A DNA stretch of 64,000 nucleotides, taken from the NCBI GenBank assembly GCA_003564155.1, contig PWOA01000054.1:26237-90236 (forward strand). Reading direction: 5' to 3'. The notes beneath the pieces are model-generated. The model ran no database searches and was not told the DNA's origin. It was given only the letters and a program-made list of their open reading frames with translations. Positions 485 to 63,286 of the stretch are shown in pieces; position 1 is the stretch's first letter; the number at the start of each line of letters is the position of its first letter. Origin of the DNA: Candidatus Cloacimonadota bacterium. Lineage in GTDB: Bacteria; Cloacimonadota; Cloacimonadia; Cloacimonadales; PWNZ01. Position numbers and translations under genes: made by a program.

Positions 485-1045
485 ATGGCGAATACATCTG
501 ATATTAGAAATGGAATGATAATTGAATATAAAGATGGGATATGGGAAGTAATTGAATTCTTGCATGTCAAACCTGGTAAGGGTAATACCTTCGTTCGCAC
601 AAAAATGCGTAATGTTAAGACAGGGCAGATACAAGAAAATAATTTCCGGATTAGCGAAAAAATTACGGAAGTTCGCGTAGAAAAATCAAAAAAACAGTAT
701 CTGTATCGTGATGGAGATTTCTTTGTATTTATGGACAATGAATCTTTTGAGCAGATAAATATTCCTTCTCATGTTATTGGTGATTTAGATAAAATGCTGA
801 TTGATAATACCGATGTAGTAATGAAAATGACCTCAGATGGAGAAATTTTGGGGATAGAATTACCCACATCAATAGAAATGGGAATTGTTGAGAGTGATCC
901 AAGTATCAAAGGAAATACTGCTTCATCAAGCGGTAAAAATGCGGTAACTGAAACCGGTTTAAAGATTACCGTTCCCTTTTTTATTGAGGTTGGAGATAAA
1001 GTTAAGATTGATACCCGTAACGGCTCTTACCTTGAAAGAGTATAA
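485..1045 (+). CDS. efp: Translation elongation factor P
   Basis: MANTSDIRNGMIIEYKDGIWEVIEFLHVKPGKGNTFVRTKMRNVKTG is the canonical EF-P N-terminus with the PGKG loop lysine. The length is 186 aa. AAGGTG lies 7 nt upstream of ATG 485. The ORF-track start at 398 adds a non-homologous extension. Confidence 0.93.
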   Translation: MANTSDIRNGMIIEYKDGIWEVIEFLHVKPGKGNTFVRTKMRNVKTGQIQENNFRISEKITEVRVEKSKKQYLYRDGDFFVFMDNESFEQINIPSHVIGDLDKMLIDNTDVVMKMTSDGEILGIELPTSIEMGIVESDPSIKGNTASSSGKNAVTETGLKITVPFFIEVGDKVKIDTRNGSYLERV

Positions 1046-1234
1046 AAAAGTACGGAGTAAAAAGATCTTGATAGGGCAATAGTTTTTTGATAATTAAATG
1101 AATTGCTAACTGACACTATTACACAATAGATTTATTAATCAGTTCATCGAACAAGAGGATAGAAAATAATCGAAAATGGTTGACAAAAATACCCTGCTTT
1201 ATTTTATGACAATCAAACGTTGAACGGAGGATCA

Positions 1235-1450
1235 ATGGCAAAGAAAAGAACATTTGCAGCAAAACTTGCGCATGAAATTGGAACTGAAGGTAAGCAAATA
1301 TGTCCCAATTGTGATATTGAAATTAAGAGAGTCAAAGTACTTCGCAATAAAAAAAGGGGAGCTAATAATTGGTCTCCTGCAGTTACATTTCAGAACATCT
1401 GTAAATGTAATGAAGGCGATATTTTTTCCGTGAAAACGTCTATGCAATAG
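1235..1450 (+). CDS. Small basic Cys4 zinc-ribbon protein (71 aa), function unknown
   Basis: GGAGG lies 5 nt upstream of ATG 1235. CPNC and CKC pairs suggest a zinc ribbon, and the N-terminus is Lys/Arg-rich. The gene is followed by a strong terminator at 1491-1530. Confidence 0.6.
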   Translation: MAKKRTFAAKLAHEIGTEGKQICPNCDIEIKRVKVLRNKKRGANNWSPAVTFQNICKCNEGDIFSVKTSMQ

Positions 1451-1470
1451 CACACACAACACACACACCC
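1451..1470 (+). repeat. Imperfect (CA)n tract cacacacaacacacacaccc directly after the stop codon
   Basis: Read directly from the sequence. It is a 20-nt C/A-only run in an otherwise AT-rich spacer. Confidence 0.6.
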
Positions 1471-1490
1471 TACATAGAATGCCCTCCTAA

Positions 1491-1530
1491 CGCCCTCTTA
1501 TCTCCCCGGTAAGAGGGCGTTTCCTTTATT
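1491..1530 (+). terminator. Rho-independent terminator
   Basis: Perfect 10-bp stem CGCCCTCTTA (1491-1500) / TAAGAGGGCG (1510-1519) with a 9-nt loop, followed by TTTCCTTTATT. Confidence 0.75.
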
Positions 1531-1637
1531 AAGGATTTTGAAGCGTTATGGTAATATTAGCTTAATAGTAGCTTTAATCAGGTTCAAATTACTTGGGAAT
1601 TTCGGAGATGTTTATGAAAGCATGGGATTTGTTTATA

Positions 1638-1667
1638 TTGACAAAATACTGTCTATTATTCGATAAT
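1638..1667 (+). promoter_or_regulatory. Candidate sigma70-type promoter TTGACA-N18-GATAAT for the protease cluster
   Basis: TTGACA at 1638-1643 and GATAAT at 1662-1667, about 80 nt upstream of ATG 1747. Confidence 0.35.
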
Positions 1668-1746
1668 ATTATAGTATTCGAGAACTACTAGATTAAAAAA
1701 AGAAAGATAATTATAACTCGTAAGTTAAGTATTCCAGAGGTTATTG

Positions 1747-4700
1747 ATGAAAAGATTTAGCATAATATTAACATTAGTACTTTTTGCTTATAGTTTTTAT
1801 ACAGGTCAATCCTATAAATTGTCAGCAGGTGAAGAACTTCATGTTTCAAGACTAGATTCATTTGGTATAAATACTGATCAAATCAACAATGATTTAATGA
1901 GATTGGTACCGGAAGGTGAAGAAAATGTTATCTCGGAAAAGTATGGACCTTTTGCAATTCAGGAAAGGAAGGCATTTTTAGAGGATAACATTAGAGATAA
2001 TTACTTACCATCTGAAGGAATTCGACTTCCTGAGAATATTCTTGTGTTAATGGTAGAATTTCCTGAAACACGTTTTGAAAATACTATTACTAATCAGGAC
2101 TATTTAGCTGATCCAAGCTATTCTATATCCGATTATATCGGTAGATATATGTTCCATTTACAGAGCTATTATTTAGATGCTTCGAAAGAATTATATCAGA
2201 TAAATTATGAAGTTTTGGATTCAATTATTACTTTAGACAGATCCATGAGTTATTATGGTAGCCAAGTAAATAGCTTAGCAAGAAGAGTGCGATTGATACG
2301 TGATGTTATTGCTAAGGTTGATTCGGTCGTTAATTTTAATGATTTCGATTCTTATGTGATTTTTCATGCAGGAGCCGGTAAAGAAACGGACGTATTTAAT
2401 GATAATCCAAACACTATTTCTAGTTCTTTCATTAATCGACGTTTATTACAAGCTGTTATGGCACCGGATGATGATGAATTCAAAGGTATTAAAACTGAGG
2501 ACGGTACATATATTCAAGAAGTTATTATTGCCGCTTCTCATCAGAATCACGAAATCACACAGCAAGAAACAAACTATAGCGTATTTGGTTTACTAACTTA
2601 CCTTTTCGGTAGACAGATGGGATTACCAACCCTGTTTGGTAACTTACCACAGTTGGGTGCTGCATCTGGAGTGGGTAATTTTTGTGTTATGGGAACCGGC
2701 GCTTGGAATGCTAACGGTCATGTACCGCCATACTTATCTGCTTGGATTCGATATGTGTTGGGATGGGAGTTCCCTAAAGTAATAACAAATGCATATCAAG
2801 ATTTAGAGATAGTTTATCCTTTTAAAACACCATTTTGGGAAGCTACTAATAGATTTCATATTAATAATGATGATTGGTGGGGCGGAACTCCACGGCTTTA
2901 TAAAGTACCAATATCTGCAACAGAATACTATTTAATTGAAAACCGAGAACAAAATCCTGATGGGGCTAAATTAGGTGATGAACCTAGATTCTCCTTTCAG
3001 CTATTACCTGAAGGAGAACAAGACTTTTATCCACCTCCTTATTATATGGTACCACGGTTCAATTTTATGAAAAATACCTACCGCGGTTGTGACTGGGATT
3101 TTTATTTACCAGGATATGGTGGACCTGAACATGAAGTCTTTATTGATGGTTCGGGGATTCTTATTTGGCATATTGACGAAAATATTATTAATGAAAAATA
3201 TGCAAAAAATCATATTAATGCAGATCCAAATCATCAGGGAGTAACTTTGATAGAGGCAGATGGAATACAGCATCTGCGCTCAAGCATACCTCACATATAT
3301 ATGCGTGGATCACCTTATGATAGCTTCCGACAAGGACATAATGACTACTTTGGATTTTCAATTAAGGATGACGGTATGGTATCTAATCCTTATGTAAAGA
3401 GTCATTATGGTAATACTGAATTAGAGATTTATGATATTAGTATTTCAGGGCCGCAGATGACTTTTTCCGTGAATCTTCCTCGTACTATAGAATATGATTA
3501 TATAGGGGAAGATGTCTTGCCTTTGAGTGTTGTGCCAAATTCTGAAAAGATGTCGGAATTGATTTTTTTGCCGACTTCCTCAGGGAGCGTATTTTTATTA
3601 GAGGAAGATGAAGTTATACCTGGATATCCAATAAAAACTGATGATATAACCCAACTTTATGCTTATGATCCTCTTAACAGTGCGTTTTTAGTGCCGGTTG
3701 AAGACAATGATAAAAGCCGTTTAATAATATTTGACATGACTGGTAAAGAGACTGCAGATATTTATCACGGTTATAAATGGGCTACGCATCCTATAGTACT
3801 GAATGATGCTTCTTACCATGATCAACCCGGATTAAGATTTGAAAGGCGAAATATAGATGATCAGGCTTATATAGCTTTGGCCTTACATAAGGATGAAGAT
3901 GCCAAAGTGGTATTATATGACACTCGTTTGAATAGGATCAAACAGTTTAATTTTAGTGAAACAAAAATTGCTGCAAATATGATGTATAAAAATGGGATCT
4001 TATATCTGATTACTAAGCCGGTGAATAATCCGGTTATTACAAATTTAATTGCTATAGATACAATAAGTTATGAAAAGAAGGAAATTCGTTTAGTTGATGA
4101 AATTGGAGCGTCATTAACCAATCTCAAAGATCAAATATCCAATTATAATATTAAATCAGCATTACTTGCTCCAGTAAAGCGAACAGAAAATGTAGATATC
4201 GGAGATAATCTCATCATTATCACAGAATCTAATGGATTATACCTTATCGATTTAGATGGATCATTACAATCAGGTTATCCTGTATATTTTGATGATGATA
4301 TTCTTTCCGTTCCATCGCTTGCCGATGTCACCGGCAATGGATTTTTGGATATTATACTTGTTTGCGGACATCGGTTACATGTTATTGATTACACAGGAGC
4401 CACTGTAAATTATCCCGTTAGGGCTGAGTTGGAGAAGAAACAAGGTGAGATTAATGGAGATAAAATTAATCACTTGGGAGCTGTAGCGTTCGATACTAAT
4501 GGTAATGGTAATAAAGAGATAATAAGTATAATGGATGCGAACCGATTAAATATGTGGGATAATCATTTAAAGACAGTTTCCGGTTATCCGTTAGTTTTTC
4601 TTGAACAAGGGAAACACACTCCTGTCGTAGCAGAAAATCATGATGGAGTTTTTCTGTATGTTAATGCTGAAAACGGTAAAATATTCAAACGTAAGTTGCC

Positions 4701-5103
4701 AGGAGCTGTTATTGGTGAAAATAGTATATCATCCTTATGGTATAGTGAGTATGGTAATCTACAAAGAACTGCTTCATATACCTTGTTTTTACCGGATAAT
4801 AAGCTAAAAACCGATGCTATTTTTGTTAAAGATCAATGCTATGTTTTCCCTACCCCTTTAACTTATGAAAATGGCGGAATTCTTTATTTTAATATCATGG
4901 TAAGTAAAAACACACCGGTTGAATTGAAAATATTTGACATTTCAGGCCGCATGATTTTTAAAGATGAGTATTACTGTCATGCTTACGTAGATAACCGTGA
5001 TTTAGTGTTTAAGAGGATCGAAGACTTGAGTACTGGTATTTACATTGCTGTACTTAAGGCTAAATCGGAAACGATGGAAATAAGATTTGCAGTAGAGAAA
5101 TAA
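1747..5103 (+). CDS. Secreted M6 (immune inhibitor A)-like domain protein with degenerate zinc site, FG-GAP-type repeats and T9SS-like C-terminal domain
   Basis: Signal peptide MKRFSIILTLVLFAYSFYTG. M6-domain blocks are present: GVGNFCVMGTGAWNANGHVPPYLSAWIRYVLGW and GILIWHIDENII...HQGVTLIEADG. YLFGRQMGLPT sits where HEFGHxLGLPD is expected. Repeats carry SGYP and ADVTGNGFLDIILV motifs. The C-terminal ~85 aa (..VELKIFDISGRMIF..TGIYIAVLKA..) resemble a Por secretion tail. Confidence 0.8.
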   Translation: MKRFSIILTLVLFAYSFYTGQSYKLSAGEELHVSRLDSFGINTDQINNDLMRLVPEGEENVISEKYGPFAIQERKAFLEDNIRDNYLPSEGIRLPENILVLMVEFPETRFENTITNQDYLADPSYSISDYIGRYMFHLQSYYLDASKELYQINYEVLDSIITLDRSMSYYGSQVNSLARRVRLIRDVIAKVDSVVNFNDFDSYVIFHAGAGKETDVFNDNPNTISSSFINRRLLQAVMAPDDDEFKGIKTEDGTYIQEVIIAASHQNHEITQQETNYSVFGLLTYLFGRQMGLPTLFGNLPQLGAASGVGNFCVMGTGAWNANGHVPPYLSAWIRYVLGWEFPKVITNAYQDLEIVYPFKTPFWEATNRFHINNDDWWGGTPRLYKVPISATEYYLIENREQNPDGAKLGDEPRFSFQLLPEGEQDFYPPPYYMVPRFNFMKNTYRGCDWDFYLPGYGGPEHEVFIDGSGILIWHIDENIINEKYAKNHINADPNHQGVTLIEADGIQHLRSSIPHIYMRGSPYDSFRQGHNDYFGFSIKDDGMVSNPYVKSHYGNTELEIYDISISGPQMTFSVNLPRTIEYDYIGEDVLPLSVVPNSEKMSELIFLPTSSGSVFLLEEDEVIPGYPIKTDDITQLYAYDPLNSAFLVPVEDNDKSRLIIFDMTGKETADIYHGYKWATHPIVLNDASYHDQPGLRFERRNIDDQAYIALALHKDEDAKVVLYDTRLNRIKQFNFSETKIAANMMYKNGILYLITKPVNNPVITNLIAIDTISYEKKEIRLVDEIGASLTNLKDQISNYNIKSALLAPVKRTENVDIGDNLIIITESNGLYLIDLDGSLQSGYPVYFDDDILSVPSLADVTGNGFLDIILVCGHRLHVIDYTGATVNYPVRAELEKKQGEINGDKINHLGAVAFDTNGNGNKEIISIMDANRLNMWDNHLKTVSGYPLVFLEQGKHTPVVAENHDGVFLYVNAENGKIFKRKLPGAVIGENSISSLWYSEYGNLQRTASYTLFLPDNKLKTDAIFVKDQCYVFPTPLTYENGGILYFNIMVSKNTPVELKIFDISGRMIFKDEYYCHAYVDNRDLVFKRIEDLSTGIYIAVLKAKSETMEIRFAVEK

Positions 5104-5148
5104 GTTATATATAAAAAGAAATATCATTAAATATAAAAGGATCTTATA

Positions 5149-6075
5149 ATGTTAATTAATAACAAGATAGTATACATTCCTATAGTTTTAATTCTACTGA
5201 TCAACATCAGTGTCAATATCAATGCTAATCAATCGCAATCAAAAGCTGAATATGGTTGGCAGATGCTTACTATTCCACCTAACACGTCAATATCCTCAAT
5301 GGCTGGAACAGGTGCATCCATATCACCAGAAGCAAGTTCTTTTATTTCCCATCCAACTGCCGGTTTGTTAAGTCAATCACATTCTATTTCAGTTTCCCAG
5401 ACAAACTGGCACTTTGATACAATTTTTAACAGTATTGCTATTAACCTTCCTCGCGGATCAAGATCGTTGGGTTTTGCATTGAGGAGTTTGGATTATGGTA
5501 AGTTCGATACACGTGATATTTCCGGTAGAATAATTGGAGAGTTTCATCCTTTAGATCTTAATATTATTGGAAATGCCGCCTTTAGAGTTTCGCCGAATTA
5601 TTATTTCGGATTTAATCTCTTTGTACTGTATCAAAAGATTGAATCCTCTTCATCTCTGGGATGGGCTACAGATCTTGGAATTACTTATTTGACACCGGTA
5701 ACCGGTTTAGACATTCATGCAGCTATTAAACATTTGGGTGCAACAACTTCCGTTAAACAAGAAAGCATAAAGCTTCCTTTGACACCGGAAATCTCATTTG
5801 GATATAGATTGCCAGATAGATTAGATATAGTTTATTGTGAATTTAAAATCTTATCTCATCCGGATGATGATGATTTGAAATTCGTCACTGGCATTAATAC
5901 GGATATAACAGAACATTTCAGTATAAATTTCGGTCATAGAATAAATTATGATAGCCATAATTATTCAGCCGGTATGGGACTCAACGTCAGGAATTTGATA
6001 TTTAATTATAGTTTTTTACCATTTAAACATAACTCTGATGATGCTCACTCTTTTAGTATAAGTTATCTTTTTTGA
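5149..6075 (+). CDS. Outer-membrane beta-barrel protein, PorV/PorQ-like (tentative)
   Basis: Has a signal peptide. The N-terminal motif SMAGTGASISPEASSFISHPTAGLL resembles the G-x-G-x-A...(D/E)xSAxxxNPAGL motif of PorV/PorQ-type barrels. Alternating beta-strand pattern, and the C-terminus FSISYLF ends in an aromatic residue. Lies 45 nt downstream of the preceding gene. Confidence 0.5.
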   Translation: MLINNKIVYIPIVLILLINISVNINANQSQSKAEYGWQMLTIPPNTSISSMAGTGASISPEASSFISHPTAGLLSQSHSISVSQTNWHFDTIFNSIAINLPRGSRSLGFALRSLDYGKFDTRDISGRIIGEFHPLDLNIIGNAAFRVSPNYYFGFNLFVLYQKIESSSSLGWATDLGITYLTPVTGLDIHAAIKHLGATTSVKQESIKLPLTPEISFGYRLPDRLDIVYCEFKILSHPDDDDLKFVTGINTDITEHFSINFGHRINYDSHNYSAGMGLNVRNLIFNYSFLPFKHNSDDAHSFSISYLF

Positions 6076-6252
6076 TTTAAAAGATTAACAATAATAAAAT
6101 ATGTTCGCAGCCTTATTAGGGCTTTGCTAAAGAAAATCGTTAGACAATGGAATAATTTTTTTACTGTGGATTTGTGTTTTGATAAATGAGGTATTGTGTC
6201 TCATTAACTAGTATGTTAAGATACAAACCATAACTAATATGAGGAAGGATTA

Positions 6253-9200
6253 TTGAGATTTATTTTTTTAGTGTTATTATCTTTATTTTTCACCCAATTA
6301 TTTGTTCAACCGTTATCATCTATAGGTCTAAAATATACTCCTCGAGAGTTAATAGTTAAAACCTCAGCGCCTGTTAATACTAGGGACTTATCATTTGCTG
6401 CTCCTGAACTAGACCGTTTATTAGCTGAGCTGTCGGTGAAAGAAATCAAACCGGTTACACCTTCTGCTACAAACAATTATTATATAGTACGTGTAACAGA
6501 AGATTTTGAATGGAATAATCTAAGGCGTCGTATTGACTATGCCAGATTGGGAAGCAGTGCCGGTATTGAACATATTCAGCCGAACTATATCAATGAAATG
6601 TTAATTGAACCTAATGACCCGTTATTTTCCGAACAATACTTAGATCTGATAAGAATACCGCAAGCTTGGCAGTATGAAACAGGTAGTGAGCAGGTTATTG
6701 TGGCAATAATAGATTCCGGATTATGGTTTGAACATCCTGAGTTTGTATGCGAAAGCAATATATGGATAAACCATTCCGAATATCCACCTAATGGCGAAGA
6801 TAGTTCTGGGAATGGATATATAGATGATTGGCGAGGATGGAACTTTGTTGATGCACCTGAATTATCAGGCATAGCAATAGGTAATTATGTAGGTCAAGAT
6901 AATGAGCCATTTGATGAAACAGGCCATGGAACTCATGTTTCCGGTATAATCGTGGCTAAAACAAATAATAATGAAGGTATCGCCGGTGTTTGCTGGGATA
7001 TAAAGATGATGATTTTGAGAGCTGGGTTCAGAACTGTTACCGGAGCAGGATATTTGCAGGATGATGATGCAGCTGCCGCAATAATATATGCTGCTGATAA
7101 CGGTGCTCATGTTATAAATCTCAGTTGGGGGAGTAACCGTTTTTCACGTATTATAGCTGATGCTTGTCAATATGCTTATGAAAAGGGATCAATCATCGTT
7201 GCATCTGCAGGTAACAATCCTCGCCCGGAAGTGATGTATCCAGCAAGATTAAACACTACTATTGCTGTGGGTGCTGTTGATAATAATCTAAATCCGACCT
7301 CTTTTACTTCTTATGGTCCTGATATTGACTTAATGGCACCAGGGCAGAATGTATTAAGTACCTATTTAGATAGAGATGATAGAATTTATAGAAGATTATC
7401 GGGAACTTCGATGTCAGCTCCATATGTATCGGGTGCAATAGCATTACTATTATCTTCGGAACCACGGTTGAGTTTTGAAGAGGTTAAATCTAGATTATTG
7501 CGTTCATCTAAAGACATGGGCGTTCCAGGTTTCGACAATAGATTTGGTCATGGAGTGTTAGATGCTGAAAAGTTGTTAACCATATCTACCGGACCCTATG
7601 TAGAAGTTACTTATCCAACAAATAATCAAGGATTTTCGCAATCTTTTGAAATCAAGGGTACTGTTAGGACTCCAGATTTCTTCCGTTATAGTGTTATGTT
7701 TACCGATAGTAAAGAACCTGAATCTTTTGATTGGAAAGATGTTATAACTCATAATAATAGCCCTCATTATTATTATGAAGAAGTAGAAGATGATGTAATA
7801 ACAAAATTTAACATACCTCATACCTTACCGGACAACAATTATTTAGTCCGTATCCTAATTGAAGATAATAGAGGGAATAGTTATCAATCAAGATTTAGAG
7901 TGAATGTTAATCAATCCAAACCGAAGTTGATAGCTGAAAGCTTAACAGTATTTGAAAGATATTCGGCCAATTTTTTATATTACTATATACAAGCAAAATT
8001 TGATCAATCAGTATCTTTAGAGATTGAGTTAAAAAAAAATACTGATATTGATAATGAAGTACAAGATATTAATATTGTACATAGCAATCATTCTGACTCC
8101 TTACACATCTTAAAGATACCTAAATTAGCACACGGAGACTATTCCTTTCGAATATCTGCAGTTAATAACAGTAGCTTTCGTTATACTTCAGATTGGTATG
8201 AGAACATGTTAAATGTTCGTCCATATGCAATAAATAGCGGAAACTATCAGAGCCAAATCGTCGGACCTGCTTTAATAAGTATAGGAAAATCTAAAGATTA
8301 TAATGGGAACGGTTTACCCGAATTTATTGGTTTAGAATATAGTCCTGAACAAGACAAAGCTGAAGTTGGTGTTTTTGAATTAAACTACAATAGAGAGATG
8401 GAGTTGCAACATAAATTTGATGATTACTTCTTGCCAGTTGATTCAGGAAATACTAATAATGGAGGTATGGAAGTTTTAGGTCTAATGTTAGACACAGCAG
8501 TTATTTTTGAAGCATATGGAGCTGAAGTCTATCCGAATGTAACATTGTGGTCAAAAGATGCTGTCAATGGAGGAAATTTTATTGATTGGAATGATAACGG
8601 TGTAGATGACCTGTTTTTGGTTAGAAGCTATGAAGATCAGACCATAATATCTTTTTTCGAAAGAACCGGTAATACTTTCACTGAGCGTAATACGCTTTTT
8701 AATAAAACAGAGTCGGATAATCGTAACCAATTTGTTCCTAAAGTTATCGCATCAGATTTTAATAATAATGGATATATGAATGTAATAGCAGCTGATACAG
8801 ATGGTGATATTATGATCTTCGAAATATATAATGAAAAACAGGATAGTTTAATCTTTCAACATCGGTTACCTGTATCGGACGCATATCATATTTCATCCGG
8901 AGATTTCACAGGTGACGGTTATAAAGAATTTTGTGTCGGTGGGCATAGTTTCAATCATGCTGACCCGGGGAAAACATTCTGGTATTTTGAGTTTTTTGGG
9001 TATGATCGAGATGGGATTAATGGGACTTCTAACCGTTTCAGATCCTTAGGTTATGTTTCCTTTGATCATTATGAACCAGTCAATGCTATCAAAGCAGTTG
9101 ATTTCAATGAAGATGGTAAATACTCGCTGGTTGTGGCATTAACTCCTTATCTTTACATCGTTAACTACGAGAATAAAGAATTTAAACCGGATTGGCAAGG

Positions 9201-10515
9201 ATCATCTCATGATACTTATCAAATTATTCCTATTGCTGAAAATGTTAATACACCATCAGGAGTGATAGTTAATGATTATTATCAAGGTAAACTCCACTCT
9301 CATTTCGTAAGCTTATCAAAGCATAGTGGACCGCCCACACCTGCAGGTTTAACTGTTGACCCTAAAGATGAAGAGAGTGTTTTATTAACCTGGAACAGTA
9401 ATGACGCCGATTACTATTATATTTATAGGAAAGATTGTGATTATAACAACAAATATTATAAATCATATGGAGCTGTATTTATCGATAGTGTTACAACAAA
9501 TTACTACTTAGACAGTGGTTTAGAGGCAGGTAAAGACTATTGTTATGCTTTACAGGCGTATAATAGACTTTACCTGCCGCCAAAGAGCGAGTTGTCGCCT
9601 TGGGTAAGAGCAACTCCCAATCCCGTTCCGACAATAATTTCAGCCACACATATAAGCCCTTATGAATTGCATATATTATTTGATATGCAATTAGCTAACG
9701 ACGCCATTAATGTTGGGTTTTACAGGGTTAATAACAACAAGGGAATACCATTATCAGTTAATCATACACACAACCATAAAGGATTGTTACTCAGGTTTCG
9801 TGATCCATTTACTGATCCGCAAGAACCCTATTTTGTTGAGATTAATGGTATAAAGGGAAGGACTGGCGTTCCTGTACCAAATCAGCGTTTCTTTTTCGAA
9901 TTTGAATCCGACTTTACGAAACCGTTAATAGTTTCATATACCGTTCATAAAGAGAGGCAATTGAGAGTAAATTTCAATAAATCTATTAATCCTGATACTG
10001 CTTTAGACGTAAATAACTATGACTTGAAAACCCCTTTAGTGGATAAGCTTAATCGAATCTATGAAGTCAATGTTGCAGATTCGGCACTTGTTTTTATTTT
10101 TAAAAATGATTTAAAAGTCACAAATCAACCTTATTCACTTAAAATGGGGAAAATTGAAGATTTAGCCGGTAATACTTTACCAAACGACAATAATATTCTG
10201 CATTTTCAAGTTGCTAGTATTGACAATCTTGATTATGTCCAGATCGTACCTAACCCTATGATCAAAGGAAATCCTGGACATGCAAATATGCAACTGATAG
10301 GGTTACCATTAAACACTAAAGGTAGTTTTTACTTATATTCTTTAGCTGGTGAACTTATCTATCAAGAGGATATCGATTCACTTACTCCATCACGTAGTAT
10401 TTGGGAATGGAATGTAACTAACAAATCTGGACGCAGGATATCTTCCGGTGCATATTTTTATGTAGTGATTATGGATGATAAAATAAAAAAAGGTAAGTTT
10501 ATTATTGTAAATTAA
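6253..10515 (+). CDS. Secreted S8 subtilisin-like serine peptidase with FG-GAP/VCBS repeats, Fn3 and Ig-like domains and T9SS-like C-terminal domain
   Basis: TTG start with GAGGAAGGA upstream, followed by a signal peptide. The catalytic residues are intact: VAIIDSGL (Asp), HGTHVSGII (His), INLSWG (oxyanion Asn), SGTSMSAPYVSGAIALL (Ser). FG-GAP-like DFNNNGYMNVIAADTDGD and DFTGDGYKEF motifs. Fn3-like LTVDPKDEESVLLTWN...YCYALQAYN. C-terminal tail ...FYLYSLAGELIY...SGAYFYVVIM. Confidence 0.9.
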   Translation: MRFIFLVLLSLFFTQLFVQPLSSIGLKYTPRELIVKTSAPVNTRDLSFAAPELDRLLAELSVKEIKPVTPSATNNYYIVRVTEDFEWNNLRRRIDYARLGSSAGIEHIQPNYINEMLIEPNDPLFSEQYLDLIRIPQAWQYETGSEQVIVAIIDSGLWFEHPEFVCESNIWINHSEYPPNGEDSSGNGYIDDWRGWNFVDAPELSGIAIGNYVGQDNEPFDETGHGTHVSGIIVAKTNNNEGIAGVCWDIKMMILRAGFRTVTGAGYLQDDDAAAAIIYAADNGAHVINLSWGSNRFSRIIADACQYAYEKGSIIVASAGNNPRPEVMYPARLNTTIAVGAVDNNLNPTSFTSYGPDIDLMAPGQNVLSTYLDRDDRIYRRLSGTSMSAPYVSGAIALLLSSEPRLSFEEVKSRLLRSSKDMGVPGFDNRFGHGVLDAEKLLTISTGPYVEVTYPTNNQGFSQSFEIKGTVRTPDFFRYSVMFTDSKEPESFDWKDVITHNNSPHYYYEEVEDDVITKFNIPHTLPDNNYLVRILIEDNRGNSYQSRFRVNVNQSKPKLIAESLTVFERYSANFLYYYIQAKFDQSVSLEIELKKNTDIDNEVQDINIVHSNHSDSLHILKIPKLAHGDYSFRISAVNNSSFRYTSDWYENMLNVRPYAINSGNYQSQIVGPALISIGKSKDYNGNGLPEFIGLEYSPEQDKAEVGVFELNYNREMELQHKFDDYFLPVDSGNTNNGGMEVLGLMLDTAVIFEAYGAEVYPNVTLWSKDAVNGGNFIDWNDNGVDDLFLVRSYEDQTIISFFERTGNTFTERNTLFNKTESDNRNQFVPKVIASDFNNNGYMNVIAADTDGDIMIFEIYNEKQDSLIFQHRLPVSDAYHISSGDFTGDGYKEFCVGGHSFNHADPGKTFWYFEFFGYDRDGINGTSNRFRSLGYVSFDHYEPVNAIKAVDFNEDGKYSLVVALTPYLYIVNYENKEFKPDWQGSSHDTYQIIPIAENVNTPSGVIVNDYYQGKLHSHFVSLSKHSGPPTPAGLTVDPKDEESVLLTWNSNDADYYYIYRKDCDYNNKYYKSYGAVFIDSVTTNYYLDSGLEAGKDYCYALQAYNRLYLPPKSELSPWVRATPNPVPTIISATHISPYELHILFDMQLANDAINVGFYRVNNNKGIPLSVNHTHNHKGLLLRFRDPFTDPQEPYFVEINGIKGRTGVPVPNQRFFFEFESDFTKPLIVSYTVHKERQLRVNFNKSINPDTALDVNNYDLKTPLVDKLNRIYEVNVADSALVFIFKNDLKVTNQPYSLKMGKIEDLAGNTLPNDNNILHFQVASIDNLDYVQIVPNPMIKGNPGHANMQLIGLPLNTKGSFYLYSLAGELIYQEDIDSLTPSRSIWEWNVTNKSGRRISSGAYFYVVIMDDKIKKGKFIIVN

Positions 10516-10851
10516 GTATCAATAATTAGAACGATAGATAAGCTTGAGAGGTCTTTCTACCTATATTATTTCAATATAATATCAAAAGATAGTTATGGGG
10601 ATTGGAGGTAAGATTAAATAATAAATATTATTCTATCAAGTCTCAATTCCTCTGTACATAAAAGATCTATTAATAATAAATAAGGCAATATATCGTCTTT
10701 TATTGAGTATAAGACAAATACTTTCTTGACACAAGAAGGTTGTACTAACATCTTGCTCCATGGGATATCCGACAGCAGATATCTTGATATTATTTGTTAT
10801 GTTGCTTGGTGCGACTTCACACGAAAACTGTTACAGAATCTGGAGGAAATG

Positions 10852-11670
10852 ATGATCTCGTTGGACTGGAAAGATCGACTCACAATTGACACTGAAGATT
10901 TCGTTAATCGCAAGCTTCCTCAAAAAAATTATGATATAGATATAGTGTATAATGCTTATCCGAAGAGAGTCGATAATAAAATACCTGCGGAAGTTATAAA
11001 ATATGTTGGGAAAACCCTTGGTAGCAAGATTGGGAAAAATATAGATCAATATGAAGAATTTCTAGATTATTTATGGGAACAAAAAGGAACTAACGGTCAT
11101 CTCATTTTTATGCATTTAATGAGAATTGCTTTGGTAAAAAAACCGGATATATATATAGATCATCTAAAAAAGAAAGTAGCAAATTGTTCCGATGCCTCAG
11201 AAATGAAAGCATTGATAAAGACAATTATGCCTTTACTAAAGAAAAATCCCAAAACATATATCGATAAACTCTTTGAGTGGTTACATGTTGGGAATACCTT
11301 AATGCAAAAAGAAATTATTAAAGCATTTATTAAAGCAGTGAAAGACGATCCCGAATTGGCACGTTATGTTTTTCAAAAAATGGAAAGAGGATGGCTCTAT
11401 CCTAATCCTTATACAATTAAAACCAGTAGCCAATATCTTAAAGCTATCAGTAAAATTGATCCGAATTATTATTATTCTATTTATGAAAACTATAAGACAA
11501 GCCGTAATCCAGTTTTTGTTGAAATACTTTGTGAAGGTTTATCTCCTATTGAAGATCCAACTGCAAGAGAGAAGATTGAACAGTATGTTATAAATTGGAC
11601 AAAAAGCGGTAATGTCAGGATTAAGAAAGCTGCATTATCAGCAACGAAAATTCTTAATAAAAAGATATAG
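10852..11670 (+). CDS. Hypothetical alpha-helical (HEAT-like) protein, weak DNA-alkylation-repair (AlkD-like) resemblance
   Basis: GGAGG at 10842-10846 precedes ATG 10849/10852. The protein is all-helical and Lys-rich. The C-terminal INWTKSGNVRIKKAAL resembles the W..s.N.wvRRaA motif of AlkD-type HEAT proteins. Function is not established. Confidence 0.5.
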   Translation: MISLDWKDRLTIDTEDFVNRKLPQKNYDIDIVYNAYPKRVDNKIPAEVIKYVGKTLGSKIGKNIDQYEEFLDYLWEQKGTNGHLIFMHLMRIALVKKPDIYIDHLKKKVANCSDASEMKALIKTIMPLLKKNPKTYIDKLFEWLHVGNTLMQKEIIKAFIKAVKDDPELARYVFQKMERGWLYPNPYTIKTSSQYLKAISKIDPNYYYSIYENYKTSRNPVFVEILCEGLSPIEDPTAREKIEQYVINWTKSGNVRIKKAALSATKILNKKI

Positions 11671-11860
11671 ATTATTTTTGGTGACCAAACATCCAATCTG
11701 TTGTACTTGTACAATAGAAGAAGTAATTTGATTATCGGGTCAATTACATAAATCCATACTTAGATATTTATTTGGCCTAACATATTATACTACTTATACT
11801 ACAGTGGAGTGTATTCGTTGTTTATCAAAACAACATAAAAAAATCAATAAGAGGTTTTAT

Positions 11861-12340
11861 ATGAGTAACTTAGACTATATAACAAAGCAAGGTTATGTTA
11901 AACTTAGACAAAGATTAGATTTTCTAAATAATACTGAGCGTCCCGACATTATCAAGCAAGTAGTTACTGCAAGGGAGATGGGTGATTTATCAGAAAATGC
12001 TGAATATCATGCCGCAAGAGAAAAACAAAGACAAATAGATAAAGAGATTACTCATTTAAAAAATAGATTCAATAAATTGCAGGTTATCGATCCCAGTACT
12101 ATGCCTAAGGATGCTGTTAGATTTGGGGCGGTAGTTAGAGTAAAAGAAGCAGAAAAAGTCATGAATTATAGAGTTGTTGGAGTGGATGAGGCAGAATTTT
12201 TAGATGATGTTGAAATTAAACCAATATCTATTGCGTCTCCCATCGGTAGATCTCTGTTGGGTTCTAAACCCGGCCAAACAGTAATAGTCAAAGTTCCGAG
12301 AGGAAATATTGAACTGCATGTTATTGAAATAGTGAAATAG
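11861..12340 (+). CDS. greA: Transcription elongation factor GreA
   Basis: MSNLDYITKQGYVKLRQRLDFL...REMGDLSENAEYHAAREKQ and C-terminal SIASPIGRSLLGSKPGQTV are GreA hallmarks. 159 aa. AAGAGG lies upstream of ATG 11861. Confidence 0.92.
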   Translation: MSNLDYITKQGYVKLRQRLDFLNNTERPDIIKQVVTAREMGDLSENAEYHAAREKQRQIDKEITHLKNRFNKLQVIDPSTMPKDAVRFGAVVRVKEAEKVMNYRVVGVDEAEFLDDVEIKPISIASPIGRSLLGSKPGQTVIVKVPRGNIELHVIEIVK

Positions 12341-12375
12341 TTTGAACTAAACAAAAATTTTTCTATGGAGGAAAT

Positions 12376-13389
12376 TTGGCACAGGTTGTTATTATTGGTG
12401 GTGGTAGTTGGGGTTTAGCTATCGCCAATCTTTTAGCGGATAATAAGGTTACAGTGAGTGTATGGGAATATAATAATAAGTATGTTCGCGAAGTTGAATT
12501 AACAGGCTACAATTCAACTTTTTTACCCGGAATAAGAATCAATGATAGAGTATTAATATCATCTGACATGAACCAAGTATTCAAGGTAGATCCACATATT
12601 CTGATTTTTGCTGTACCTTCACATACTATGCGATCAGTAGCTATACAAGTTAGGAATTGTTTAAAAGATATCAAAAAACTGAAAGCTATCATTAATTTAG
12701 CAAAAGGTGTAGAAGAAAAAACGATGAAAAGAATGTCGGAAGTCTTATTAGATGAATTACCGTCAGTCACGCATCGACTTATTTGTTCTCTTTCTGGTCC
12801 GAGTCACGCCGAAGAAGTTGCAAACTTTATACCTACGACGGTAACTTTAGCTGGAGATGATGATGATAGCTTGGTTTATGCCCAAAGTCTTTTGAGTAAT
12901 GAATATTTTAGAGTTTACACCAGTGAAGATTTAATTGGTGTTGAGCTCGGAGGGGCAGTAAAAAATATTATAGCTATCGCAGCAGGTATAATCGATGGTA
13001 TTGGATTAGGTGATAATACAATGGGAGCTTTATTAACAAGAGGTCTTGCCGAGATTCGAAGATTGGGAGTTAAACTAAATGCACATCCACAAACGTTTAA
13101 CGGTCTTTCGGGTATTGGAGATTTAATTACAACAGCTATAAGTCGACATAGTAGGAATCGTTATGTCGGTTATTGTCTGGGTAAAGGTCAGAAACTTGAT
13201 GATATTCTAAGTAGCATGGCTATGGTAGCCGAAGGAGTTCGTACCACGAGATCTATTTATCATCTATCAAAAAATCTTCAGGTTGATATGCCGATCACAT
13301 GTGAAGTCTACAACATACTTTTCAACAACAAAGATCCCCAGGAGGCGATACGTGAATTAATGACCAGAGATCTGAAAGAAGAAGATTAA
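12376..13389 (+). CDS. gpsA: NAD(P)H-dependent glycerol-3-phosphate dehydrogenase
   Basis: VVIIGGGSWGLAIANLL Rossmann motif, LSGPSHAEEV, GAVKNIIAIAAGI, and 337 aa in length. TTG start preceded by GGAGG. Confidence 0.9.
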   Translation: MAQVVIIGGGSWGLAIANLLADNKVTVSVWEYNNKYVREVELTGYNSTFLPGIRINDRVLISSDMNQVFKVDPHILIFAVPSHTMRSVAIQVRNCLKDIKKLKAIINLAKGVEEKTMKRMSEVLLDELPSVTHRLICSLSGPSHAEEVANFIPTTVTLAGDDDDSLVYAQSLLSNEYFRVYTSEDLIGVELGGAVKNIIAIAAGIIDGIGLGDNTMGALLTRGLAEIRRLGVKLNAHPQTFNGLSGIGDLITTAISRHSRNRYVGYCLGKGQKLDDILSSMAMVAEGVRTTRSIYHLSKNLQVDMPITCEVYNILFNNKDPQEAIRELMTRDLKEED

Positions 13390-20073: not shown

Positions 20074-20508
20074 TCACCCAATTTTTATTTCTTTAGCTGG
20101 AATAGGTTCCTTTTTAGGTATGATAAGAGTTAACACACCATCCTCCATTTTAGCTTCAACTCTTTCTATATCACACATCTCAGGAAGACTAACAACCCGG
20201 CGATAATTTCCTTTAAATCTCTCATAACGATAGACTGTTTCGTTTTTTTCGTTTTCCTTTTTTTCACTGACTTGTTTCCCTTCGATTATTAATTCATTAT
20301 CGTGAACTGATACTTTAACATTATCTTTCTTAATCCCAGGCATATTTGCTCTTATAATATATTCCTTATCTCTTTCGGATACATCCATTGGCATCATCTT
20401 ATTTGTTTCAGACTGTTCATCAATAAAGGCATTACTAAAGAAATCATCAAACAAAGATGACATTAAAGGAAACAAGTCTTTAGTATTGCGAGTAGTTAAA
20501 TAATTCAT
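20074..20508 (-). CDS. Hsp20/alpha-crystallin family small heat-shock protein (copy 2)
   Basis: Alpha-crystallin domain: MPMDVSERDKEYIIRANMPGIKKDNVKVSVHDNELIIEGK...YRYERFKGNYRRVVSLP...AKMEDGVLTLIIPK. GGGAGG lies upstream. Confidence 0.9.
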   Translation of the reverse strand: MNYLTTRNTKDLFPLMSSLFDDFFSNAFIDEQSETNKMMPMDVSERDKEYIIRANMPGIKKDNVKVSVHDNELIIEGKQVSEKKENEKNETVYRYERFKGNYRRVVSLPEMCDIERVEAKMEDGVLTLIIPKKEPIPAKEIKIG

Positions 20509-20521
20509 AATACCTCCCAGT

Positions 20522-47333: not shown

Positions 47334-47555
47334 CTTATGATAATACTTTATATATATATCAACAGATGACTCATATTGAAGGGTTTAATGTGGCTAAGTG
47401 ATTAGAATTTTATAATTATAACTTGTTAAACCATATTCTTTGTCTTATAAGCGTTAGTTATATTTTTATTGACGGATTTCACGTAGTGATATTATTGATT
47501 ATTGATGATTAGATGTATGAATATTAATAGAGTAAATAGATTTGGGAGGAGACAT

Positions 47556-59671: not shown

Positions 59672-62600
59672 ATGATTAGATTATTGATAATATTTGTACT
59701 CATCTTATTGATGACTATAACGAGCTTGTTTCCAAAGATGGTTTTTGACATACAAATAGATGATTTCGGTATGAGGAATAGTCAATTTGATTCTTCAATG
59801 CCAATACTTAAAAATATTGGCGAACCTATGGTACCATTTAAAGACTTACGTATCTTATTACCACAAGGAAAAGTATTTCAGGAAGCGGGAATAGATATAA
59901 AAAGAGATAAATATGTATCTGTACCTCAAATTAATCATACACAAGAACCTTTACCTATTTCATATTTTCATGATGTCAATTCAAATTATAGGATAACGAG
60001 GAATGAGACAATATATCAACGAGATGCCTATTACCCTTATAAAGATATTGAAATATTGGGGATTGAAAGAAAAAATGGACATGATATTTTAATCTTAAAC
60101 ATTTATCCTTATCAATATAACCCAGTTAAAGAGACTGTAAAATGGGCTTCTGACATTACATTAACTATTAAAACTGAGTCGTGTGATGGTGTTGCTTATC
60201 AGCAAAACCTTTTTTTGGTTCAAAACGAAAGAATCCGTGATGAAATTTCTCATTTGGTTATAAACCCTGAGATTTTAAATACTTATTATAAACAACCCTT
60301 TAGAAGAGAATCTTTGCTAGCTGACCCGAATAATCCCTTCGAGATGATAGTAATATCAGAGAAGTCGAAGGAAGAAGTTTTCGAAGATTTTATTGATTGG
60401 AAATTCGATAAAGGTATTACAACAGGTTTCTTCACAACAGAAGATATCTACAATACCTATAAAGGTGTTGATAATCAGGAGAAAATACGTAACTTCATAA
60501 TTGACGCTTATAAGACGTATTCCTTAACAAAAACTCCATTGGAATATGTAATCTTAGGCGGTGATGATCAAATAATCCCCATTAGAGGCTTATATGGACG
60601 TGTAGGTCAATACGTCGATTATAACATGCCCGCTGACATTTATTATAGCAATCTTGACGGATGTTGGGATGGTAATGGAAACGGAATTTATGGTGAACTA
60701 AATGATGACATAGATTATTTTTCTGAAGTAGCTATCGGTAGGATACCGGCTTATTCAAATCAAGAGTTCTACAACTTTTTTGAAAAAACATACCGCTACG
60801 TTGATGTTAATAGCTTCAGCAATGATATAGTTTATATGTTGGGAGAAAATCTTGATAATACACCTACTTGGGGAGGAGACTATAAAGATGAGATAATACC
60901 GTACATACCGGATGATTATCATATGGAAACTTTATACGAAAGAGATGAAACATTTAGTAGTCAGGGTGTTTACAATATTTTTGAGGGAGGTTTTTCATAT
61001 ATAAACCACATTGGACATGCTAATCATTCAACTGTTTTCGGAATTAGGAATAGCAGAGTATCCTCTTTAAATAATACAGAATTTGGTTTTGCATATACAC
61101 AGGGATGCCACCCAGCTGCCTTTGATTATGGAACAAGCGAAGAATCGGGAGCTGTCGGGCAGAATCTCACTATAGCTTCGGGAGGATTGTTTGCATTTAT
61201 AGGTAACACGAGATATGGTTGGTATCGCAGAGGAACAACTGATGGCCCGTCACAGGCATTCGATATAACATTTTTTGAAGGACTTTATGACAAGTCTATA
61301 CGTGAACTAGGTCATACTATGAATTATTCAAAAGAAAGTCTTGTTAATCAAGCTAAGAAATATGATGTAATGAGGTGGGTTTATTTCCAGCTTATACTTT
61401 TTGGTGACCCTTCGGTAGCCGTCAAGGATCCTCTTGGTACATTTCCTTTTGTTGAGGTTAGTGATTTTATGTTTGACGATGTTAAGGGAGACGGAGATGG
61501 AGTAGTTAATCCAGGTGAGACAATAAATATATATGTAGAAATCAATAATCTCGAAAACTGGGCAGATGCAACTGAGACTGTGGGAACTCTTTATATTGAT
61601 GATCATCATATCCAAATACTCAATGAGACAGTATATTTCGGAGACATACCAACAAATGACTCAATAAATAACGAAGACGCACCATTTATGGTGGCATTGG
61701 ATGACAAAATCTCATATGGAACTTATGAACTTAATCTGCTGATAGAATCATTGGGAGTTGATAATGCAAAGTTTTCTAAGGTTTATTCAATTCCTATGCC
61801 TGTAACCCTTGAACAAAAAAAATGGCCTTGGAGACACCAGTATCCGATTAATGCAAACCCAGTTTTTGCTGATTTAAATAATGATGGAGTTGGTGAGATT
61901 GTTGTCACCGATGTTCAAGGGAATGTAAACTTCTTAGACCGGGAAGCTTCCTTTTCCAGAAAACAAATTGAGAATACTGAGTTACTATGGCGCAGTTCGT
62001 CTTTGGGAGATTTGACTGGTAATGGTAAACTTGATATTGTAATGGCAAGTAGACGTAATAAAGTCATCGCTTACAGTGTCGAAAATGATACACTTTTCAC
62101 GTACAATGATTGCGGACAAATTGTTTTAACGCCTGTAATTGCAGATATTAATAATGATGGGAATAATCAGATAGTAGTGTTAGACATAGACAAAAAGCTG
62201 TATGTTATCGATAATGAAGGTAAGATTGGAGATGGATTCCCTCTTACATTGTCACAGACAGCAGTTGCTGATTTAGCTGTTGCTGATCTTACAGGTGATG
62301 GAAATCAAGAAATCGTAGTAGGAACTTTAGATGGTAAACTCCATGCCGTTAAGTATGACGCTTCATTTGTTGACGGTTTCCCAGTACAATTAGATAGTCG
62401 TCCTATATCTGCACCGATAATATTGCCTAACTACGATATCGTAGTTAGTACTGGGGGCAATAAATTGCATTTGATTTCTAAAGAGGGTAAGGTATTAATG
62501 GAGAGAAAAACTCAGGGAAGAGTTGCGATGGAGATTATTGCTGCAGATTTTACAAATGATAATATTTTGGAATTTGCTTATGTAACCAATAATGGCTACA

Positions 62601-63286
62601 TTGATATCATAAACCGACAGGGAAGTTCATTATCAGGTTTTCCAATCAGAGCCAGCGGTTCCTTTCTTCATCCTCCATTAGCTGTAGATATGAACGGAGA
62701 TAACTTGGTTAACTTGATAGCTCATACTTCGACCGGAACTATTTATGCTTTTAATCATCAGGGCGAGATCATTAATTATTTCCCATATCCTGTAGGACGC
62801 TCAATAGAAGCACCTGCATCTATAGCAGACATAGATAAAGACGGTGATTTAGATATAATCATTTCAACTTCTTCAGGTGTTACGGTTATTGATTATAAAA
62901 ACCGATATAAATCCATTAAACCTTGGACAACTTATCGAGCTAATTTACAAAGAACCGGTTTTTATGGAGAGGATCATACTTTAGAAATTGAAGAGATAAA
63001 TGTTCCGATTGTTACTAATCTGAAGCAAAATTATCCTAATCCATTTAATCCTGAAACAAAAATTGATTTTGCCTTGAGTAAAAATAGTCATATTTTATTA
63101 GAAGTATTTAACTTAAAAGGTCAGCGAATTAATACTCTTATCGATGAATATTTAAAAGAAGGACATCATAGTGTTGTATGGCAAGGTGTTGATAATAAAC
63201 AAAATATCGTTAGCAGTGGGATATATTTCTACAGACTAACAACAGAAAATAAGTTATTCCATAAAAAAATGATGTTGTTAAAATAG
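59672..63286 (+). CDS. Secreted C25 (gingipain-like) cysteine peptidase with FG-GAP beta-propeller repeats and T9SS C-terminal sorting domain
   Basis: Has a signal peptide. C25-like blocks are VILGGDDQIIPIRG, YINHIGHANHSTVFG (catalytic His candidate) and FAYTQGCHPAAFDYG (catalytic Cys candidate). About 7 repeats of the form ADLNNDGVGEIVV / ADLTGDGNQEIVVGTLDGKLHA / ..GFP.. The tail NYPNPFNPETKIDFAL...LEVFNLKGQRI...SGIYFYRL is a textbook Por secretion tail. Confidence 0.85.
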   Translation: MIRLLIIFVLILLMTITSLFPKMVFDIQIDDFGMRNSQFDSSMPILKNIGEPMVPFKDLRILLPQGKVFQEAGIDIKRDKYVSVPQINHTQEPLPISYFHDVNSNYRITRNETIYQRDAYYPYKDIEILGIERKNGHDILILNIYPYQYNPVKETVKWASDITLTIKTESCDGVAYQQNLFLVQNERIRDEISHLVINPEILNTYYKQPFRRESLLADPNNPFEMIVISEKSKEEVFEDFIDWKFDKGITTGFFTTEDIYNTYKGVDNQEKIRNFIIDAYKTYSLTKTPLEYVILGGDDQIIPIRGLYGRVGQYVDYNMPADIYYSNLDGCWDGNGNGIYGELNDDIDYFSEVAIGRIPAYSNQEFYNFFEKTYRYVDVNSFSNDIVYMLGENLDNTPTWGGDYKDEIIPYIPDDYHMETLYERDETFSSQGVYNIFEGGFSYINHIGHANHSTVFGIRNSRVSSLNNTEFGFAYTQGCHPAAFDYGTSEESGAVGQNLTIASGGLFAFIGNTRYGWYRRGTTDGPSQAFDITFFEGLYDKSIRELGHTMNYSKESLVNQAKKYDVMRWVYFQLILFGDPSVAVKDPLGTFPFVEVSDFMFDDVKGDGDGVVNPGETINIYVEINNLENWADATETVGTLYIDDHHIQILNETVYFGDIPTNDSINNEDAPFMVALDDKISYGTYELNLLIESLGVDNAKFSKVYSIPMPVTLEQKKWPWRHQYPINANPVFADLNNDGVGEIVVTDVQGNVNFLDREASFSRKQIENTELLWRSSSLGDLTGNGKLDIVMASRRNKVIAYSVENDTLFTYNDCGQIVLTPVIADINNDGNNQIVVLDIDKKLYVIDNEGKIGDGFPLTLSQTAVADLAVADLTGDGNQEIVVGTLDGKLHAVKYDASFVDGFPVQLDSRPISAPIILPNYDIVVSTGGNKLHLISKEGKVLMERKTQGRVAMEIIAADFTNDNILEFAYVTNNGYIDIINRQGSSLSGFPIRASGSFLHPPLAVDMNGDNLVNLIAHTSTGTIYAFNHQGEIINYFPYPVGRSIEAPASIADIDKDGDLDIIISTSSGVTVIDYKNRYKSIKPWTTYRANLQRTGFYGEDHTLEIEEINVPIVTNLKQNYPNPFNPETKIDFALSKNSHILLEVFNLKGQRINTLIDEYLKEGHHSVVWQGVDNKQNIVSSGIYFYRLTTENKLFHKKMMLLK

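Follow-up and report, generated by a model that had tools for sequence, protein, structure and literature searches.

A conserved gene trio of Cloacimonadota encoding an M6-like pseudoprotease, a PorQ-like outer-membrane barrel and an S8 subtilase, and its possible role as a type IX secretion docking module

We analysed a stretch of 64,000 nucleotides (nt) from contig PWOA01000054.1 of a Candidatus Cloacimonadota bacterium, referred to here as the window, and found in it three same-strand open reading frames (ORFs; 1747-5103, 5149-6075 and 6253-10515) with spacers of 45 nt and 177 nt. They encode a secreted M6-like pseudoprotease (M6i), a small outer-membrane beta-barrel matching the PorV/PorQ family and a secreted S8 subtilase, and both large proteins end in type IX secretion system (T9SS) C-terminal domains (CTDs). 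The original prediction, made from the letters of this DNA, had described the ORFs and spacers in this way and had given all three proteins secretion signals, and signal-peptide-like N-termini are indeed present on each of them. The trio might represent a dedicated dock, in which the M6-like protein, and probably the S8 protein too, stays attached to the barrel through its CTD, so that a protease complex is held at the cell surface. We prefer this reading tentatively, with a confidence somewhat below even.

The linkage of the three genes was followed by scanning one genome per GTDB species, which yielded 156 relatives of gene 1, and the best 80 of these 156 loci were examined. Genes were counted by iterated hidden Markov model (HMM) searches of all ORFs, with the loci that had room for the respective gene as denominators. 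A barrel gene was located directly downstream of the M6-like gene in 77/77 loci, and an S8 gene directly downstream of the barrel in 65 of 67, the exceptions being L025 and L068. Since it is kept in so many species-level loci, the arrangement is far beyond chance. Flanking genes were retained less often, with efp upstream in 36/48 loci and a pair of a hypothetical gene and greA downstream in 17/57. The three genes (100% and 97%) are therefore bound to each other more tightly than to their surroundings (75% and 30%), and the pair of M6-like gene and barrel is the invariant core of the module. Identity of gene 1 across the linked loci was 32-52%. From the M6i stop codon to the barrel stop codon the median distance was 920 nt, so that some 15 nt remain as spacer; trio genes called in relatives were 12-114 nt apart. 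The survey of related genomes that had been suggested along with the original prediction thus found the triplet syntenic in essentially every relative, and more strictly so than its flanks.

All 80 loci were from Cloacimonadota except for two bins labelled Armatimonadota with the same synteny. The source names attached to homologs likewise assign the window to this phylum. These two loci (L013 and L014) carry efp, the M6-like gene, the barrel, the S8 gene and greA, and their metagenome-assembled contigs are probably mis-binned or mislabelled. The two loci lacking an S8 gene after the barrel (L025, 12931-14978, and L068, 13090-16641) keep the M6-like gene and the barrel, and in L068 a reverse-strand ORF of 380 amino acids (aa) fills the gap.

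The protein encoded by gene 1 matched NF052323, the NCBIfam model of T9SS-dependent M6-like inactivated metalloproteases, with 276.6 bits (E 4e-82). Other Cloacimonadota proteins scored 265-296 bits, and neither they nor the window protein reached the model cutoff of 600. The alignment covered profile positions 47-1029 of 1043, which indicates a full-length architecture with a destroyed active site. The M6 domain model TIGR03296 gave 60.7 bits (E 2e-16; cutoff 110.8), and the N-terminal domain was homologous to immune inhibitor A (InhA; PDB 4yu5, E 2e-7). When aligned with 4yu5, the InhA zinc site H-x-F-G-H-x-L-G-L-P-D corresponds to Y-L-F-G-R-Q-M-G-L-P-T in the window protein. The HExxH motif was kept in 4 of 81 gene 1 orthologs, most had HQxxH and the remainder were more degenerate, while the position of the third-ligand Asp was occupied by T, S or N in all 81. 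Judged by these residues the M6 site is dead in at least 77 of the 81 species, and yet the protein is well conserved, with its most conserved stretch (aa ~400-600) lying downstream of the dead active site. The dead M6-like protein of the original prediction is thus well supported, both by the family match and by the loss of HEXXH...D.

An AlphaFold2 (AF2) model of this protein (predicted local distance difference test score, pLDDT, 83.5; predicted template modelling score, pTM, 0.82) showed a beta-propeller between an M6-like domain and a CTD folded as a beta-sandwich. Searches of this confident model with Foldseek returned generic propellers only (such as BBSome, BamB and designed propellers) and not PorZ, so that M6i as a structural homolog of PorZ is not supported. 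We also considered repeats common to both large proteins and rejected them, as BLASTP between the M6-like and the S8 protein found no significant similarity; the two are alike only at the profile level, in FG-GAP and CTD.

Gene 2 encodes a barrel whose C-terminus (...SYLF) carries the Phe typical of outer-membrane proteins. It scored 89.4 bits (E 3e-25) on the PorV/PorQ family model NF033709 with a cutoff of 90, and orthologs scored 87.5 and 96.5. On the PorQ model NF033711 it reached 80.9 bits (E 8e-23) and its orthologs 98-102, all below the cutoff of 220 and with alignments that end after two thirds of the model, whereas the PorV model NF033710 gave 23.4 bits (cutoff 250). By these models the barrel appears nearer to PorQ than to PorV. 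There was no match at E <=0.1 to the PorP/SprF family (TIGR03519). The only significant PDB sequence match of the barrel profile was PorV of F. johnsoniae (6e-5). An AF2 model (pLDDT 76.7) was best matched in Foldseek by PorV (8gl6_F, E 2e-9, query TM-score (TMq) 0.69; then 6h3i_F), followed by FadL and TodX, and with ~300 aa the barrel falls ~100 aa short of the solved PorV chain, which has 402. The PorV/PorQ-like barrel of the original prediction is thus borne out by its predicted fold and by its matches to the PorV/PorQ models, with the family score just under the cutoff.

An exhaustive HMMER search retrieved 8578 relatives of the barrel. About 35 clusters of these are orthologs, and the many others, trailing off in similarity, are ~300-aa proteins of other phyla that match PorV_fam, with PorQ scoring better than PorV. 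Among the nearest relatives outside Cloacimonadota, 108/108 matched PorV_fam (best 1.4e-72), and 0/108 reached the level of the PorV2 model (best 4e-30). A second PorV-family barrel of 337 aa was observed in locus L050 (18937-19950, +), ~0.7 kilobases (kb) downstream of the S8 gene; it scored 64 bits on PorV2 and is nearer to that model than to PorQ.

Gene 3 starts with TTG, 5 nt downstream of AGGAAGG, and its protein contains an active-type S8 domain (PF00082, 192 bits) with D154, H225 and S386 in place, as had been predicted. The Asp, His and Ser of the triad were kept in 65/65, 65/65 and 66/66 of the S8 orthologs that had residues at these columns. Among solved enzymes the nearest were Ak.1 protease, deseasin MCP-01 and thermitase, with E values of about 1e-40, which places the domain, as far as sequence can tell, closest to broad-specificity degradative subtilisins. 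A protease of this type is in line with reports of secreted peptidases in Cloacimonadota (PMC8542988).

TIGR04183 matched 44/44 M6i CTDs, including the one in the window (25.3 bits, cutoff 23). The S8 CTD of the window remained below this cutoff with 19 bits, and the ortholog in L005 reached 26 bits; of the T9SS-type CTDs proposed for both proteins, that of the M6-like protein thus passed the cutoff in the window and that of the S8 protein in an ortholog. We then compared family CTD profiles of ~95 residues with all solved chains. The M6-like profile matched the CTD of PorZ (5m11) at 2.9e-5 and that of PorU (6za2) at 1.1, while the S8 profile matched both (PorZ 2e-5, PorU 2.8e-5). As a control we used the CTD profile of a C25 peptidase encoded elsewhere in the window (59672-63286), which matched PorU at 3.7e-5 and PorZ at 0.33. 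The control was PorU-like only, and therefore the comparison discriminates between CTDs. CTDs of cleaved cargo (NucA, RemA, RemZ and 8glj_D) gave values of 0.005-0.1 against the M6-like and S8 profiles. By this measure the CTDs of both trio proteins resemble the retained CTDs of PorZ and PorU more than those of cleaved cargo. The NCBIfam PorZ model further matched 40/44 M6i CTDs (best 8.8e-11, on a 95-aa CTD) and the PorU model 21/44. These matches were confined to the CTDs, and scores stayed below the cutoffs of the PorZ equivalog NF052228 (260) and the PorU sortase model NF033707 (420); a full-length ortholog (P0127) gave 25 bits on the PorZ model.

In Porphyromonas gingivalis, PorZ and PorU are the two T9SS proteins with retained CTDs, and they are docked to PorQ and PorV, respectively, which are barrels (PMC12365241, PMC5562754). 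Modelled on this system, the module conserved across Cloacimonadota would probably be transcribed as one unit, and both large proteins would be exported by Sec and then by the T9SS via their type-A CTDs. The PorQ-like barrel would serve as a fixed dock rather than as a general shuttle and would bind the M6-like protein, to which it is most strictly linked in the genomes, by its uncleaved CTD, and probably the S8 protein in the same way. Proteolysis would be carried out by the thermitase-like S8 subunit, while the M6-derived subunit, having lost catalysis and kept its core (aa ~400-600) and propeller, might act as a binding or scaffold subunit. We favour a dedicated dock because the linkage of the trio exceeds background synteny, because the barrel is PorQ-like and because the CTDs resemble their PorZ and PorU counterparts. 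The original prediction had proposed a dedicated shuttle or anchor for the pair of large proteins, and none of the refuting checks that were run, on the barrel models and on synteny, went against it. Its anchor part is favoured by the PorZ/PorU-like CTDs, whereas a shuttle that moves cargo from the translocon fits a PorQ-like barrel less well.

A dock is also favoured because relatives of the barrel in other phyla adjoin proteins with PorZ/PorU-like CTDs. The same cassette outside the phylum was rejected, since the loci with the nearest barrel relatives (L088 in KSB1, L092 and L093) lacked M6i and S8; the barrel neighbours there were other propeller-CTD or LTD-CTD proteins. In L088 (6289-10885) and L092 (1-8906) a choice-of-anchor-X protein came first, then a propeller protein whose CTD is PorZ/PorU-like, then another barrel of the PorV family and last the barrel itself, and in L092 this two-barrel cluster was located directly downstream of sprA. 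From its gene content the cluster looks like a compact attachment module. On a third contig the barrel gene was flanked by those of an OmpA protein and of a protein of 1300 aa, the CTD of the latter scoring 59 bits on the PorZ model.

Several observations weigh against a dedicated dock. One barrel for two passengers is without precedent, as P. gingivalis has one barrel per passenger, and the pair without an adjacent S8 gene in L025 and L068 means that the S8 protein may not be an obligate partner. The likeness of the CTDs depends on short profiles with E values of about 1e-5. In the window itself the M6i CTD missed the PorZ model at E 0.01 and also the PorU model. Foldseek found no specific structural similarity between the M6i propeller and PorZ. 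T9SS core genes (SprA/Sov, PorK/L/M/N) were not found within the window. Finally, conservation of a single locus throughout the phylum beside housekeeping genes suits a machinery component equally well. These core genes, SprA among them, were likewise not found in the sequences of the related loci examined, and our literature search found no published T9SS inventory of Cloacimonadota, for which the presence of a T9SS has been suggested as a possibility (PMC11285876).

A fairly unlikely account, which agrees with the data equally well, is that the triplet belongs to the machinery and not to its cargo. The barrel would then be the PorQ ortholog of the phylum and the M6-like propeller-CTD protein a stand-in for PorZ, the non-catalytic protein that feeds the sortase, with the S8 protein as an accessory or even CTD-processing peptidase, the C25 peptidase of the window as a PorU-like sortase and the triplet as a non-orthologous attachment complex. 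Several of the results above fit such a role. The likeness of the M6i CTD is to PorZ specifically and that of the C25 CTD to PorU; M6i and barrel stay paired without exception, also in the loci that lack S8; housekeeping genes surround the module; and in other phyla the nearest relatives of the barrel are grouped with another PorV-family barrel and with a protein made of propeller and CTD, once next to sprA. NCBIfam moreover lists consecutive models for M6i (NF052323), a "putative T9SS sortase PorU2" (NF052324) and PorV2 (NF052325), a putative type IX sorting system protein, which hint at a system of M6i, sortase and barrel in other organisms. Like M6i, the C25 protein is conserved in the phylum at constant length. 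It had 725 homologs at E <=1e-10, and among the 120 of these 725 matches listed all were ~1200 aa long, 36-59% identical and from sources named Cloacimonadota. It matched PorU2 weakly (25.7 bits), its C-terminal 270 aa scored 133 bits on the M6i model, and we consider it a candidate sortase-like or PorU-like enzyme. As a canonical PorU it was rejected, because no barrel gene adjoins it and its catalytic domain is nearer to gingipain R. The same two features speak against the machinery account, as do the scores of the Cloacimonadota proteins far below the M6i, PorU2, PorV2, PorQ and PorZ cutoffs and the restriction of the PorZ likeness to the CTD, with PorZ not singled out by Foldseek. It is fairly unlikely that Cloacimonadota build the surface end of the T9SS from non-orthologous parts, with a dead M6-propeller protein replacing PorZ on a PorQ-like barrel, a gingipain-like C25 peptidase with a PorU-type CTD as sortase and a subtilase recruited to the barrel operon, which would make the triplet an alternative attachment or sorting complex and not a cargo set.

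Another reading, which we regard as improbable, assumes no dedicated tie at all. The barrel would be a general carrier of type-A cargo in the role of PorV, its neighbours ordinary cargo with cleaved CTDs, and the linkage a result of co-regulation or inherited gene order. All type-A CTDs of Bacteroidota use a single PorV shuttle (PMC12618676), PorV is the best solved structural match of the barrel, the barrel is the sole PorV-family ORF within the 64-kb window, and the order from efp to greA is partly conserved too. However, the barrel is nearer to PorQ than to PorV (81 versus 23 bits) and shorter than the solved PorV chain, the triplet is clearly more tightly linked than the genes around it, the phylum has further paralogs of the PorV family, such as the second barrel of L050, and the CTDs of the neighbours resemble retained and not cleaved ones. 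It is very improbable that the barrel is a FadL-type substrate channel apart from the T9SS, one that might take up hydrophobic peptides or products of the adjacent protease. In structure FadL and TodX rank behind PorV as the next matches, and TbuX is a weak PDB sequence match. However, FadL-family sequence similarity was insignificant (E about 1), T9SS-specific PorV/PorQ models matched at E 1e-23 to 1e-25, all 108 closest relatives outside the phylum matched PorV_fam and one relative adjoins sprA.

Table 1. Coordinates of the features described in the text, given as positions within the 64-kb window.
Feature	Position	Strand	Description and evidence
Terminator-like hairpin	1489..1521	+	14-base-pair stem with 7 GC pairs, then T-rich tail; closes small gene 1236-1450
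Promoter-like site	1638..1667	+	TTGACA-18-GATAAT; 11/12 consensus match, ~80 nt 5' of the M6-like gene
Gene 1, secreted M6-like pseudoprotease	1747..5103	+	1118 aa; signal peptide, M6-like domain, beta-propeller, type-A CTD
Degenerate zinc site of gene 1	2599..2643	+	aa 285-299, YLFGRQMGLPTLFGN; aligned to InhA H-E-x-x-H...GLPD
Beta-propeller of gene 1	3514..4746	+	about aa 590-1000, FG-GAP-like; all-beta in AF2 model, weak FG-GAP_3 match
Type-A T9SS CTD of gene 1	4843..5100	+	aa 1033-1118, invariant end ...F-A-x-E-K; TIGR04183 25.3 bits, cutoff 23
Gene 2, PorQ-like (PorV/PorQ family) FadL-fold outer-membrane beta-barrel	5149..6075	+	308 aa; HMM, PDB profile match, AF2/Foldseek
Gene 3, secreted multidomain S8 subtilase	6253..10515	+	1420 aa; ORF, Pfam, NCBIfam
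S8 catalytic domain of gene 3	6688..7554	+	aa 146-434, D154, H225, N289, S386; PF00082 191.9 bits, cutoff 21.8
Non-catalytic modules of gene 3	8755..10209	+	FG-GAP aa 835-894 (1.6e-8), fn3 aa 1029-1108 (1e-4), Big_5 Ig-like aa 1229-1319 (3e-4)
CTD of gene 3	10270..10512	+	aa 1340-1420; TIGR04183 19 bits, E 0.001, below cutoff 23
C25 (gingipain-family) peptidase, outside the trio	59672..63286	+	1204 aa; propeptide, FG-GAP propeller, type-A CTD; PF01364 180 bits, Por_Secre_tail

The three genes are probably co-transcribed, because they are tightly packed, because no internal terminator-like hairpin separates them and because a terminator and a promoter-like site lie just upstream of them (Table 1). 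The hairpin appears to mark the 5' boundary of the three-gene unit, and the promoter-like site, which sits between this hairpin and gene 1, was the top scorer in a promoter scan of positions 900-12500; both calls are consensus matches only. The hairpin scan found no terminator-like structure in either internal spacer. Promoter and terminator scans within the trio were otherwise uninformative, since the numbers of sites equalled the shuffle expectation.

The flanks consist of housekeeping genes, with efp upstream and, on the downstream side, a hypothetical gene followed by greA and gpsA. A small Cys-rich ORF of ~71 aa (1236-1450, +; CPNC...CKC) is located after efp and before the M6-like gene, and genes of 66-69 aa were called at the same place in the relatives L001, L004, L005 and L007. 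The hypothetical protein encoded directly downstream of the S8 gene (10726-11670, +; 314 aa) had no family match; it was kept together with greA in only 17/57 loci and is therefore not tied to the triplet. The window further encodes a serpin of 400 aa (42586-43788, +; PF00079, 359 bits), which thus shares the stretch with the S8 protease, a tandem pair of Hsp20-family small heat-shock genes (20074-20950, -) and two large ORFs without NCBIfam assignment, one of 1094 aa with a weak DUF4175 match (14364-17648, +) and one of 821 aa with a weak Y_Y_Y match (47502-49967, +).

The biology of the T9SS is known almost entirely from Bacteroidota, where type-A cargo proteins share PorV as their shuttle, and a permanent dock on a barrel is limited to PorU and PorZ. 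Barrel-docked PorZ and PorU as well as cognate PorP/SprF barrels beside type-B cargo are already known (PMC12618676). If the proposed dock is correct, the rule of a cognate barrel next to its passenger would extend from type-B to type-A signals, the known ways in which type IX secretion anchors proteins would gain a variant, and likeness to PorZ and PorU would offer a sequence handle to tell retained from cleaved CTDs. The trio also points to a main cell-surface protease machine of uncultured fermenters of proteins and amino acids that are abundant in anaerobic digesters, and it is a clear example of selection preserving a pseudoenzyme next to an enzyme that is active. The original prediction had regarded a cassette of cargo, barrel and cargo as not described before. 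We found no paper on such a cassette in the literature, and the claim is softened by the three consecutive NCBIfam models mentioned above.

Compared with InhA of peptidase family M6, the gene 1 protein has a homologous N-terminal domain but has lost the zinc ligands and the catalytic Glu and gained a beta-propeller and a T9SS CTD. A functional parallel is found in dentilisin of Treponema denticola, where the S8 protease PrtP is encoded with the non-catalytic partners PrcA/PrcB and, with no T9SS, anchoring is by lipoprotein. The PrtP model matched the gene 3 protein at 3.9e-32, and both systems co-encode a surface-associated S8 protease with non-catalytic partners; these partners are unrelated, and the resemblance is functional only. 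In the PorP/SprF shuttles (F. johnsoniae SprB/SprF and Fjoh_3952/3951) the barrel gene lies directly downstream of its cargo gene as in the trio, and the barrel accepts a type-B CTD and sets the final surface location (PMC12618676, PMC9143113). The barrel of the trio belongs instead to the PorV/PorQ family, and the CTDs of its neighbours are type A, not type B as in cargo with cognate PorP/SprF barrels.

The three NCBIfam models describe a close counterpart of gene 1, an inactivated M6-like protein with the same full-length architecture and type-A CTD, together with a PorV-like barrel and a large peptidase. Compared by model names and scores, the Cloacimonadota proteins reach less than half of the M6i cutoff and at most 64 bits on PorV2 (cutoff 325), and the adjacent peptidase is an S8 enzyme and not PorU2-like. 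No paper on PorV2 or PorU2 was found in the literature.

The attachment complex of P. gingivalis differs from the trio in that its peptidase is a C25 sortase and not an S8 subtilase, and PorZ has two propellers where the non-catalytic partner in the trio combines a dead M6 metalloprotease with one. The trio has one barrel for two passengers, all in one cassette, and its proteins score below the PorQ, PorV and PorZ equivalog cutoffs. Both systems nevertheless combine a small FadL-fold barrel of the PorV/PorQ family with large surface proteins carrying type-A CTDs, both pair a non-catalytic propeller protein with a peptidase, and it is PorZ and PorU whose CTDs the trio's own resemble most. The adjacency of porU and porV in Bacteroidota provides a precedent for the linkage of barrel and passenger genes.

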